Translations under genes and position numbers: made by a program
Assembly (NCBI RefSeq): GCF_003334385.1
Contig: NZ_QOWN01000036.1
DNA: 43,104 bases
DNA from: Escherichia coli
Lineage (GTDB): Bacteria > Pseudomonadota > Gammaproteobacteria > Enterobacterales > Enterobacteriaceae
Strand: one strand, 5' to 3'
Part shown: in pieces, positions 17,906 to 43,104 of the stretch
Layout: the number at the start of each line of letters is the position of its first letter
Position numbering within the stretch: position 1 is the stretch's first letter
Notes under the pieces: model-generated
Told to the model about the DNA's origin: nothing
Databases searched by the model: none
The model's input: only the letters and a program-made list of their open reading frames with translations

Positions 17906-18076
17906 CCGTAGGCCTGATAAGACACGTTAAACGTCACATCAGGCATCGCTTGTCGGATGCGGCGCTAGCGCCTTATCCGACCTACATTGGTGGTCCCGTA
18001 GGCCTGATAAGACGCGTCAGCGTCGCATCAGGCTTCAATTGCCGGAGAAGGCGATAATGCCTTATCCGGTCTACAG
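17906..18076. repeat. REP/BIME cluster in the sucB-sucC spacer
   Basis: Multiple gtaggcctgataagacgcg... and cggatgcggcg... / ccttatccg palindromic units within a 274-bp intergenic gap. Confidence 0.6.
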
Positions 18077-22310: not shown

Positions 22311-22428
22311 CCTGATGCGCTGCGCTTATCAGGCCTACGGGTAATGACTTGTAGGCCGGATAAGGCGTTCACGCCGCATCCGGCACTGGTTGCCTGATGC
22401 GACGCTTGCGCGTCTTATCAGGCCTACG
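22311..22428. repeat. REP/BIME cluster in the sdhB-sucA spacer
   Basis: cctgatgcgctgcgcttatcaggcctacg..., ggccggataaggcgttcacgccgcatccggc... and gcctgatgcgacgcttgcgcgtcttatcaggcctacgg palindromic units. Confidence 0.6.
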
Positions 22429-39775: not shown

Positions 39776-39905
39776 GCCTGATGCGACGCTTGACGCGTCT
39801 TATCAGGCCTACGTATTTCCTGCAATTTATTGAATTTGCACAAATTTGTAGGCTGGATAAGGCGTTCACGCCGCATCCGGCATCTGGGCTCGATTGCCTG
39901 ACGCG
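39776..39905. repeat. REP/BIME (RIP-like) element in the convergent dtpD-phr spacer
   Basis: gcctgatgcgacgcttgacgcgtcttatcaggcctac and tgtaggctggataaggcgttcacgccgcatccggcat palindromes flanking ctgcaatttattgaatttgc. Confidence 0.6.
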
Positions 39906-39909
39906 TCTG

Positions 39910-41328
39910 TTATTTCCCCTTCCGCGCCGCCTCATACGCTGCCAACGTTTGTACTCTCGCTTCTTTGTGCTCGACTATCGGTTGCGGATAATCCAGCGTC
40001 ACACCTGCTTTCTGCGCCCACTTCCACGGCTCATGCACCACTTTCCCTGGCACATCGCGCAGTTCCGGTAGCCACTGGCGGATAAACTCGCCCTCATGAT
40101 CAAATTTCTCGCCCTGGGTTGTCGGGTTGAAAATACGAAAATACGGCGCTGCATCGGTTCCGGTTGAAGCGGCCCACTGCCAGCCACCGTTATTGGCTGC
40201 CAAATCACCATCAATCAGCTGCGACATGAAATATCGCTCGCCTTCGCGCCAGTCGATCAATAAATCTTTCACCAGAAAACTGGCTGTAATCATCCGTAGC
40301 CTGTTATGCATCCAGCCAGTGCTGTTAAGCTGACGCATAGCGGCATCAACAATCGGGTATCCCGTTTTGCCTTCCTGCCAGGCCTGTAAATGTGCGGGAT
40401 TGCTCTGCCACTGTACACGATCCGTCCAGGCAATAAATGGACGATGTTTACACAACGAGGGGTGATACGTTATCAGGTGACGGTAAAACTCGCGCCAGAT
40501 CAGCTCATTAAGCCAGACACTACCGGCCCCACCGTCCAGCGCCTGCGGCTGTTCAGCCAACAAGCGATGCAAGCACTGGCGAGGCGATAACCCGCCCGTT
40601 GCCAGGCTGGCCGACAAACGGCTGGTGCCTTCCACTGCCGGAAAATCTCGTTGTTGCTCATATTCTCCGGCACCGTTCTGGCAAAACTGGCGTAATTGCG
40701 CAATCGCCGCTTTTTCTTCCACCGGAAAATGCGCAGTATCGAAAGACTGACGAGGATAATTCAGCGTAATGGATGGCGAGGGCTCTATCGATCCGCTACT
40801 ACGAACTTTTGGCGCAGCGACGCACTCCGGCATCCCTTCCCGCAGCCGTTTCAGCCAGGCATTCTTAAAAGGCGTAAAGACTTTGTACATCTCGTGATTA
40901 CCGGTCATCACCGCGCCAGGCGGCAGGATCACGCTGTCATCAAATCCTTCACACACCACGTTACGCAGCGCTCTTTCAACTTCCACATCCCGCGCCCGCT
41001 CATTCACTTCATACTGATAGTTATAAAACAGGTGGGTAACGCTGTTTTCCGCGCACACCTGTTTAACTATTTCGACACTGGCGACAAAGTCATCCACTTC
41101 ACGGAACAATAAAGGAATACCTTTTTCCGCAAGCGCTATTTGTAGCCCATTCAGTTGAGCATTGATAAGTTCAGCCTGACGCGGCGACATGTTATGCGTC
41201 GCCCACTGGCGTGGTGTAGCGATATACAACGCCAGCACGCGTGCAGACGAATTGCGGCAGGCGGCAGCCAGTGCGAGATTATCGTGCAGACGTAAATCCT
41301 GGCGAAACCAGACCAGATGGGTAGTCAT
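39910..41328 (-). CDS. phr: Deoxyribodipyrimidine photolyase (CPD photolyase)
   Basis: 472-aa ORF (MTTHLVWFRQDLRLHDNLALAAA...) with photolyase/cryptochrome FAD-binding domain. Confidence 0.95.
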   Translation of the reverse strand: MTTHLVWFRQDLRLHDNLALAAACRNSSARVLALYIATPRQWATHNMSPRQAELINAQLNGLQIALAEKGIPLLFREVDDFVASVEIVKQVCAENSVTHLFYNYQYEVNERARDVEVERALRNVVCEGFDDSVILPPGAVMTGNHEMYKVFTPFKNAWLKRLREGMPECVAAPKVRSSGSIEPSPSITLNYPRQSFDTAHFPVEEKAAIAQLRQFCQNGAGEYEQQRDFPAVEGTSRLSASLATGGLSPRQCLHRLLAEQPQALDGGAGSVWLNELIWREFYRHLITYHPSLCKHRPFIAWTDRVQWQSNPAHLQAWQEGKTGYPIVDAAMRQLNSTGWMHNRLRMITASFLVKDLLIDWREGERYFMSQLIDGDLAANNGGWQWAASTGTDAAPYFRIFNPTTQGEKFDHEGEFIRQWLPELRDVPGKVVHEPWKWAQKAGVTLDYPQPIVEHKEARVQTLAAYEAARKGK

Positions 41329-41834
41329 AAAACTCCTGAATGGCGCAAGTTAATCACACGCGGCCAAAGTTCGAAATAACGCTGCCCTGAAAGCCAGGCG
41401 TCAGGATAAAGCGCCATATAGTGTTTGATACGCATCAGCGGCGCAAGAAGTGGTTGCTCGCCACGGCGATAACTGTCGATAAGCGCAGCCAGCTGCTGGC
41501 GTTCTGTGGAATCAATATGCGGGCGAAAATAACCCTGAACGTGCATCAAAACATTGGTGTGATCGCGCGGGTTGGCGGGGTGAGAAAGCAAAACAACTAC
41601 GCGTTGGCGGTACTGGTTGTAATAGTCATCCAGATTTTGCCACTGGTGAATATCAGCCACGAACGGGCCAAGTTTGCGGTACTCCGGCTGAGAATGCGCC
41701 AGAAAGACGAGTTTATAGCGGCTGTGATAATCGAGAAGCGCCCCGCGCGTTAAGCCATGTTCTTTCAGTCGATGTAACTCATGAAGGGCAAAGATACGGA
41801 TTAGGGTGCTGTCATCAAATCGTTGTAGATTCAT
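41325..41834 (-). CDS. ybgA: DUF1722-family protein YbgA, co-transcribed with phr
   Basis: 169-aa ORF whose stop overlaps the phr start (ATGA). Confidence 0.9.
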   Translation of the reverse strand: MNLQRFDDSTLIRIFALHELHRLKEHGLTRGALLDYHSRYKLVFLAHSQPEYRKLGPFVADIHQWQNLDDYYNQYRQRVVVLLSHPANPRDHTNVLMHVQGYFRPHIDSTERQQLAALIDSYRRGEQPLLAPLMRIKHYMALYPDAWLSGQRYFELWPRVINLRHSGVL

Positions 41835-41917
41835 TACTGCTCCTGAGCGGTTTACAGGAGTAAGTGTAGACGTTGAGAAATGATATTTGTGAAGTTAATC
41901 CTGTTGTAGCAGGACAA

Positions 41918-41977
41918 ATTTACGAAAGCCTGCTCCCCGCAAGGACTGACGTCAGGTAGTTTCTAACCATAGCTGCC
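41918..41977 (-). repeat. H-repeat (ISAs1-family) 3'-terminal segment, displaced downstream of truncated ybfD
   Basis: About 55 bp nearly identical to 42873-42930, which encodes the C-terminus of the ybfL ORF; here it translates as ...NYLTSVLAGSRLS* but is out of context after the ybfD stop. Confidence 0.6.
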
Positions 41978-41981
41978 CTTT

Positions 41982-42743
41982 CTATTCAAACGTGAAATCA
42001 ATAAGCTCATCAGGGACATCGCAAACAATATGAAGACGGGTTTCTTCTCTGCCGTGACTCTTTTCACTAATTGCGTAACTGTCATGCTTGGGATTATTTA
42101 ATTCTTTCAGCGGAAATTTTTCCTCGAAGGCTTTATTTAGCCGCCCCTGGTTTCCTTTTACAGCGAATAAATAATCACCTCCCTGTTTTTGTATCTTCTC
42201 TGCAATATCTTTCTGGCAACCCATCGCATCAGTTGTGATGATTTTTCCTTTAATATCCAGCATGTTAAGAAGTTCAGGGATAGCTGTGATCTCATTGGAT
42301 TTCTTATCCGTCTTGATCTGTCCGATGACCAGACTGTGCATTGTTGAGAACGCACTAATGACATGAATCGCTCCCTTACGGCGACTCTTGTCATAAGAAT
42401 GCCGGTGTATTTTTCCATCAATTGCGATGACGTCTTTATCATCTGAAGAATGGTAGTCAAGCATCCAGTTAATAAAGCTCTCATGAAATTTCGCAGGACA
42501 GATACAGGATACAACTCTGGCAATGGTATCGTGAACAGGAATACCATTTTCAAAATCACCATATTGCTTCAAAAAATCGGGATGTGTTTCCCCAAAATCC
42601 TCTATATCTTCCCAGCCTTCTGCACCAGAAATAACGGCACAAATAGTCAACAGTAGAATATCCGATAATTTATGTTCCACTTTCCAGGCTTGTCTGTAAT
42701 CGGGGATAATAGAAATATGTTCCATCAATTTTTTAAGTTCCAT
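41982..42743 (-). CDS. ybfD: H repeat-associated protein YbfD (ISAs1-family transposase, C-terminally truncated)
   Basis: 253-aa ORF with DDE-transposase-like sequence, ending abruptly at DFTFE* where full-length H-repeat proteins continue. Confidence 0.88.
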
Positions 42744-42873
42744 TTTGTTCTCCTTAATTATGTAAGAAGTATTTGATCATGTATAAGCAATAAAAAACAG
42801 CTTCAGGTAATAAGGAATATCTCAATTTTTAAACATAAAATGCGAATTATTTAGTACAAAAAGCAGGGAAAGA

Positions 42874-43104
42874 TTACGAAAGCCCGCTCCCCGCAAGGAC
42901 TGACGCGAGATAGTTTCTATCCATGGCTGCTTTTCGCATCTTACGTCTTAACCCTGCCTTGAATACCTTATCATTCGTTAAAATATTAATAGCGATGTGC
43001 CGTATCCCTGAAAATAATTCTGCGGCGTTTCCTCTTCTTATTTTGCAGTCGTCTTCATTCATTACCACGTCCAGACGCCAGTGCAGCTTATTCTCCACGT
43101 GCCA
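42874..43104 (-). CDS. ybfL: H repeat-associated protein (ISAs1-family transposase), 3' portion; continues beyond window
   Basis: 74 aa visible (…[35 protein letters not shown]…[16 protein letters not shown]), matching the conserved C-terminus of ISAs1/H-repeat transposases; the ORF is open at the window edge. Confidence 0.8.

Follow-up and report, generated by a model that had tools for sequence, protein, structure and literature searches.

The ybfD gene of K-12-type Escherichia coli is best explained, with a probability of roughly 0.93, as a dead copy of ISEc1 (the H-repeat) at the edge of the RhsC element, bearing three lesions and passing through passive, neutral decay. The exact lesions are a frameshifting internal deletion of 313 bp, a nonsense substitution at codon 254 (W254*) and the loss of 24 nt from the left end, and they confirm ybfD as a pseudogene fragment of ISEc1/H-repeat. 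That ybfD is an Rhs-associated H-repeat (ISEc1) remnant of the ISAs1 family is already known and already annotated biology, and the significance of these data beyond correct annotation is small.

The sequence analysed, hereafter the window, is a stretch of 43,104 nucleotides of K-12-type E. coli, which over the portion compared (window 1-27825) shows 9 mismatches and one single-base gap relative to the J53-derived record NZ_CP068706.1. According to the annotation of a near-identical RefSeq record, it runs from tRNA-Val/Lys through tol-pal, cyd, mng, suc-sdh, gltA and the ybg fimbrial genes to phrB, ybgA, ybfD and the 3' end of ybfL. The features of its terminal part, by window position and strand, are:

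41835-41909, no strand: spacer of 75 nt from the H-repeat right terminus to the ybgA start codon, forming the border at which the variable Rhs/H-repeat region gives way to the conserved ybgA-phrB
41910-42863, minus: H-repeat/ISEc1 remnant with ybfD, 954 bp (1291 - 313 internal - 24 nt at the left end), from alignment and inverted-repeat (IR) motif
41910-41927, minus: degenerate right terminal IR of the ybfD element (CAGGACAAATTTACGAAA read from outside; consensus CAGGGCAAGATTACGAAA), in register with the termini of ybfL, ydcC and the strain 116 copy
41920-41974, minus: final 55 nt of the transposase CDS, still present, which would encode ...AAMVRNYLTSVLAGSRLS* (TAA 41922-41920); out of frame, 49/55 identical to ybfL
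41975-41976, minus: deletion junction, a 2-nt GC microhomology in the imperfect direct repeat GAAAGGGC / GAAAAGC; 313 nt gone (CDS nt 770-1082)
41982-41984, minus: ybfD stop TAG, TGG>TAG at codon 254 (W254*); TGG in full-length copies and in L005, L006, L007 and L009
41985-42743, minus: ybfD ORF of 253 codons, ATG at 42743; N-terminal DDE_Tnp_1_assoc, then the DDE domain for its first two thirds, with D109 and D172 kept and E306 missing
42744-42863, minus: what remains (120 of 144 nt) of the 5' leader of the ybfD element; its outermost 24 nt, left IR included, are missing in this strain, as judged from the left ends of ybfL, ydcC and L007
42864-43104, minus: right end of the ybfL element, with an 18-nt IR (42864-42881), TAA (42874-42876) and the CDS 3' end up to the window edge; 42931-43104 is the counterpart of the sequence deleted from ybfD

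Anatomy of the ybfD remnant

Three full-length genes of 1137 nt served as references for the deletion, namely K-12 ybfL, the copy beside ybgA in strain 116, and ydcC of strain EC32, the last being annotated as 'ISAs1-like element ISEc1 family transposase'. MAFFT global alignment put the tail in the wrong place; gap-affine pairwise alignment and a per-base register table were used instead. Aligned in this way, ybfD and its tail are collinear with the full-length gene, with a single and identical 313-nt gap relative to all three references, the outcome foreseen by the earlier note on this DNA. Read from the 5' side, ybfD keeps register up to CDS nt 769 (window 41975); read from the 3' side, it is in register as far back as nt 768; since the two registers overlap, the junction falls inside the 2-nt GC microhomology. 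Since 313 is not divisible by three, the 55 coding nt kept at the 3' end are out of frame.

The ybfD stop was not made by the deletion: W254* is a separate substitution located 7 nt upstream of the junction, and over the 7 nt from stop to junction (41981-41975; AAAGGGC as the gene reads) ybfD still follows the full-length gene. RefSeq labels ybfD as 'ISAs1 family transposase, incomplete, missing C-terminus'. The earlier note had read the ORF as ending after DFTFE, which is borne out (minus strand, 42743 to 41982, TAG next), and had placed the tail about 5 bp past the stop, which is roughly right, for 7 collinear nt precede the retained 3' segment. An internal deletion sparing the terminus, as it proposed, also stands in the form of the one 313-nt gap with the terminus present, but the ORF end is due to the separate W254* and the loss amounts to 27.5% of the CDS (codons 257-361) rather than to its last third; nor is the 3' segment 'displaced', the tail being juxtaposed and frame-shifted.

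Within 41300-43104, a repeat search yielded only one direct repeat of any substance, 69 nt long (41908-41976 and 42862-42930; spacing 954 nt, 86% identical); in BLAST, the two copies share 59/69 identities, with E = 1.2e-18 against the whole window, and 49/55 within the coding part. These are where two H-repeat/ISEc1 (ISAs1-family) elements, arranged head to tail, have their right ends, the second comprising the 3' coding end of the ybfL pseudogene (TAA 42876-42874) and its terminus, with ybfL itself cut by the window end. The match of about 55 bp to the ybfL 3' end that had been noticed earlier (41918-41977 and 42873-42930) is real and correct within 1-2 nt of register, but the repeat runs 10-12 nt further, through the element terminus; its link to ISAs1 termini likewise holds, the segments being 3' coding ends plus CAGGG-type terminal inverted repeats. 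Chance similarity and assembly artefact were considered for the repeat and are ruled out by E ~1e-18 and by its occurrence in thousands of independent assemblies.

Element ends were set by locating the terminal IR motifs in several loci, with the following lengths:

ydcC and strain 116 copies: 1291 bp, both IRs
K-12 ybfL element: 1290 bp, both IRs
ybfD orthologues in L005 and L007: 978 bp (1291 - 313), both IRs
K-12 ybfD element: 954 bp, right IR only

The IRs of the ybfL element are 18 nt long, CAGGGAAAGATCACGTAA and TTTCGTAATCTTTCCCTG (CAGGGAAAGAT...), and 16/18 complementary. In K-12, the ybfL right terminus (window 42864) directly adjoins nt 25 of the ybfD element, which is therefore without its first 24 nt and its left IR; consistent with the missing left end, an inverted-repeat search found no terminal IR pair in the K-12 ybfD element. 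The right IR of K-12 ybfD (from 41910, CAGGACAAATTTACG) is degenerate, and near-consensus in L005-L007. Thus, of the terminal repeats that the earlier note had suggested looking for, the ybfD right IR (41910-41927) and the ybfL IR (42864-42881) are in place, but the ybfD left IR is absent.

Body and tail might, in principle, have belonged to separate H-repeat copies, a larger rearrangement (and not a deletion inside one element) having brought a 5' fragment of one copy up to a solo 3' end of another, such as an adjacent tandem copy. The H-repeats stand here in tandem and demonstrably recombine (see below), and the tail, 49/55 identical to ybfL, is somewhat more diverged than the body; this extra divergence is, however, specific to the K-12 lineage, the flank by the right IR is identical in all lineages, and L005 and L007 have both IRs correctly oriented and measure exactly 1291 - 313 bp. 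Such an origin is very unlikely, and a join between tandem copies would formally equal an internal deletion, so that the distinction is largely semantic.

According to the preferred reading, that of a dead ISEc1 copy, an ancient illegitimate deletion of 313 bp at the 2-nt GC microhomology, possibly through slippage, would have joined CDS nt 769 to nt 1083 and shifted the frame, taking codons 257-361 with the catalytic E306 region but sparing the final 55 nt of the CDS together with the right terminal IR. The TGG>TAG change at codon 254 would have come later, in a K-12-type lineage, and the first 24 nt, with the left IR, would have been lost where the ybfL right end abuts ybfD. The remnant may since have persisted only as neutrally decaying repeat DNA with which its neighbours can undergo homologous recombination.

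No direct target-site duplication was found around the ydcC, strain 116, L005, L007 and K-12 copies (L003 1491-2781 and L002 5664-6974 among them), whose flanks may be rearranged; the original insertion event is therefore beyond reconstruction, and the missing duplication does not argue against homology.

At the subterminal left end, element positions 14-24 occur as two equal-length variants, CGTAACGCTG and TCAGAAGTACT (or TTAGAAGTTCA), right after a shared CAGGGAAAGATCA, as seen when L005 and L014 are compared with L001, L003 and L007.

Transposase domains and known relatives

Against the NCBIfam profile NF033564 (ISAs1 family transposase; cut-off 70 bits), YbfD scores 282.7 bits over positions 1-220 of 314 and a full copy 413.2 bits over 1-314; the C-terminal piece of ybfL in the window covers 273-314. 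Pfam recognises DDE_Tnp_1_assoc and DDE_Tnp_1 in YbfD, the latter along 3-139 of 200 positions (3-200 in the full copy). A PDB sequence search found no relative with a solved structure, and the catalytic residues were therefore taken from conservation, within a set made of the full protein and 59 representatives (34-54% identity) drawn from the 29,989 relatives that an exhaustive search gave. Among the 60 homologues, the invariant positions include D109, H302, W303, E306, H310 and D314, and D172 is nearly invariant. Conservation and general knowledge of DDE transposases indicate D109, D172 and E306 as the expected DDE triad. The ybfD deletion takes E306 together with the whole motif HW-x-x-E-N-x-L-H-W-x-L-D, all of it from H302 onward lying in the deleted codons 257-361; YbfD thus has no complete D-D-E triad, E306 being missing, and the remnant is not expected to make an active transposase.

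ISEc1 (H-rpt) is represented in K-12 by the full copies ydcC and yhhI and by the RhsC copies ybfQ, ybfL and ybfD. The retained parts of ybfD are 94-97% identical to it in nucleotides; gene, leader and the 10-nt 3' terminus match, the IRs are of the CAGGG type, and the copy occupies an Rhs element's distal end. In contrast to ISEc1, the ybfD copy is without 313 bp internally and without 24 nt at its left end and has W254*, i.e. it is a remnant and not an intact element. RhsC of K-12 was reportedly described by Zhao et al. (1993, J Bacteriol) as holding a tandem row of three defective H-repeats, their prototype being 1291 bp long.

The ISAs1 family is characterised by terminal IRs of 14-22 bp that start with CAGGG and by a target duplication of 8-10 bp (PMC11946415). 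The paper 'IS4 family goes genomic' does not mention ISAs1. The likeness to this family lies in a transposase well above the NF033564 cut-off, in the pair DDE_Tnp_1_assoc and DDE_Tnp_1, and in the 18-nt CAGGG IRs of the neighbouring and orthologous copies; the differences are that no copy examined has an 8-10-bp target duplication and that ybfD is without the catalytic E. Likewise, the family size (range 1.2-1.5 kb, about 1291 bp, with an ORF of about 378 codons) is not reached by the ybfD element, with 954 bp and 253 codons, a deficit fully explained by the losses of 313 bp and 24 nt.

Non-autonomous IS derivatives are another term of comparison, for the 978-bp form in L005 and L007 keeps both IRs around a deleted transposase gene. 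Unlike such derivatives, every copy examined stands at one locus with the same flank (the flank being part of the query), and the K-12 copy has lost one end and so could not be mobilised even in trans. H-repeats have been described as resembling ISs and as linked to the C-terminal tips of Rhs, transposition not having been observed (PMC3032704).

Distribution and decay among E. coli genomes

A 181-nt query made of flank, tail, junction and body is covered by at least 80% in 3088 of the 5426 complete E. coli genomes (57%), while the ybfL-ybfD head-to-tail junction occurs in only 1429 of the complete genomes; the deleted remnant is therefore more widespread than the tandem arrangement. The comparison of the locus between genomes, as proposed by the earlier note, accordingly reveals both this common junction and a variable Rhs edge beside the conserved ybgA-phrB. 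Two scans of 100,044 species-representative genomes, with a 33-mer and with a 21-mer including IUPAC codes, did not find the deletion junction, so that its sightings are confined to the collection of complete E. coli genomes, where it makes a handy lineage marker for more than half.

The divergent genomes L005, L006, L007 and L009 (92-95% identity) have the common flank and junction, but TGG at codon 254. Instead of W254*, they carry other nonsense mutations, namely E65* in L005 and L009, K119* in L006 and Y16* in L007. Because the junction is common and the nonsense changes differ, the deletion predates all nonsense mutations, which arose independently. The 313-bp-deleted remnant itself is probably older than the divergence of several E. 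coli lineages, and it has stayed fixed at one site.

Pairwise Nei-Gojobori pN/pS values range between 0.1 and 0.3 (0.21-0.25 for positional orthologues, below the neutral expectation), but are ambiguous, for the copies share old IS-lineage variation; counts of private substitutions were used instead. The four deleted copies entering this count (K-12 ybfD, L005, L006 and L007) have 26 nonsynonymous and 12 synonymous private substitutions, against 12 and 21 in the other copies (Fisher p = 0.009), and such an excess of nonsynonymous private changes is as expected under relaxed constraint. Non-private differences are mostly synonymous and common to other H-repeat copies. The low pN/pS is attributed to gene conversion among copies or to ancestral IS-lineage variation, either of which might also fit the chimeras described below. 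Taken together, the independent nonsense mutations and the nonsynonymous-rich private changes therefore point to ybfD as a neutrally decaying pseudogene. Along the same line, the intergenic region between ybfL and ybfD already serves engineers as a neutral site for integration (PMC7797564), in keeping with a non-functional remnant.

Four points count against a dead copy: the pN/pS of 0.21-0.25, the missing target-site duplication, the 253-codon ORF still open in K-12, and the reported up-regulation of ybfD-class transcripts in long-term stationary phase (PMC4032248), where probes or primers may have cross-reacted with ybfD paralogues. The open ORF and the transcripts, a pairwise pN/pS below 1, the presence of the remnant in 57% of complete genomes, and its position, co-directional with and adjoining ybgA-phrB 75 nt downstream, would also be expected if the truncated YbfD, with an N-terminal domain of DNA-binding type and a partial DDE domain, were kept as a domesticated protein, e.g. 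an inhibitor or regulator of transposition, or if the remnant gave regulatory signals to ybgA-phrB. Both possibilities appear highly improbable, for in other lineages the ORF is ended early, at codon 16, 65 or 119, by nonsense mutations of independent origin, private substitutions are nonsynonymous-rich, and strains 116 and Ec-042 have ybgA-phrB without the remnant. In addition, a consensus scan for promoters (41835-41990) and terminators put the region at chance level, with no site between remnant and ybgA; no Rfam RNA family was found in the region, and the defence-system models of PADLOC gave no match. Were something maintained after all, it might be the right end and flank, aiding expression of ybgA-phrB (photolyase), or the K-12-type 253-codon fragment, regulating or inhibiting full-length ISEc1 in trans; this is regarded as very doubtful, and the dead, decaying copy is the reading retained in what follows.

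Edge of the RhsC region and neighbouring copies

Past the window end, the near-identical record continues with ybfL, ybfQ, ybfC, an Rhs core fragment, ybfB, rhsC, ybfA and kdpF, and the gene order of a K-12-derived genome is rhsC, ybfB, Rhs core fragment, ybfC, ybfQ, ybfL, ybfD, ybgA. This order puts the ybfD remnant at the distal edge of RhsC, and the edge of an accessory (Rhs) region was correctly recognised by the earlier note as a variable border, here beside the conserved ybgA-phrB. As is typical of Rhs accessory sequences, the ybfD element follows downstream of an Rhs core with its C-terminal tips and immunity ORFs; in other strains, Rhs tips directly adjoin it. The flank beside the right IR, CTACAACAGG..., is the same in K-12, L005-L007, L013 and L014. 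The region upstream of ybgA exists in two forms that part about 45 nt 5' of the ATG, strains 116 and Ec-042 having the other form (L002 5536-5684 and L008 2205-2630, compared with window 41835-41909). In these two strains, ybgA-phrB is present, the ybfD remnant is absent, and full-length H-repeat copies occur at different junctions. The ybfL/ybfD array ends the RhsC accessory region at ybgA-phrB. Since the remnant is without an active transposase and, in K-12, has one end only, it may be regarded as only passive repeat DNA.

The description of the array as two tandem H-repeat copies of differing integrity holds as to the head-to-tail pair; at the full locus, however, the H-repeat pieces are three (the ybfQ fragment, ybfL and ybfD), and ybfL is a pseudogene as well. 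K-12 ybfL is full-length, with a 1290-bp element and both IRs, yet has CAA>TAA at codon 18 (Q18*; L001 11660-11662), labelled 'internal stop' by RefSeq, and a 1-nt loss in its leader.

In L010-L012, there is a single gene whose 5' part is that of ybfL (Q18*, G28, F35, S43, N101...) and whose 3' part is that of ybfD (K219, T235, W254* and the 313-bp deletion), at L010 2186-3324, L012 2186-3324 and L011 2186-2944; L011 is additionally collapsed with ybfQ. These chimeras are collapses of the tandem pair by homologous recombination and make the exchange between copies directly visible. In strain A65EC (L013 3186-3800), the whole RhsC is lost up to nt ~238 of the H-repeat, and ybfA lies 93 nt from the H-repeat fragment. 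The start of this fragment, at CDS nt ~238-240, falls within 3 nt of the end of the K-12 ybfQ fragment (nt 237; L001 11855-11860), which suggests a shared breakpoint or a hotspot at GTTGTATCC/TGTATCAG. The locus illustrates how tandem IS remnants bordering an Rhs region decay and recombine.

According to the RefSeq annotation, the transposase-type genes of the window consist of H-repeat sequences only. The claim that these were the only mobile-element-derived material in the window is right for IS-type sequences, but does not extend to palindromic units of the REP/BIME type (GCCKGATGCGRCG), with 10 matches in the window versus 0.39 expected. These units are grouped in three intergenic gaps, 17932-18033, 22372-22404 and 39776-39881 (sucB-sucC, sdhB-sucA and dtpD-phrB), and the H-repeats are therefore not strictly the sole mobile-element-related repeats of the window.
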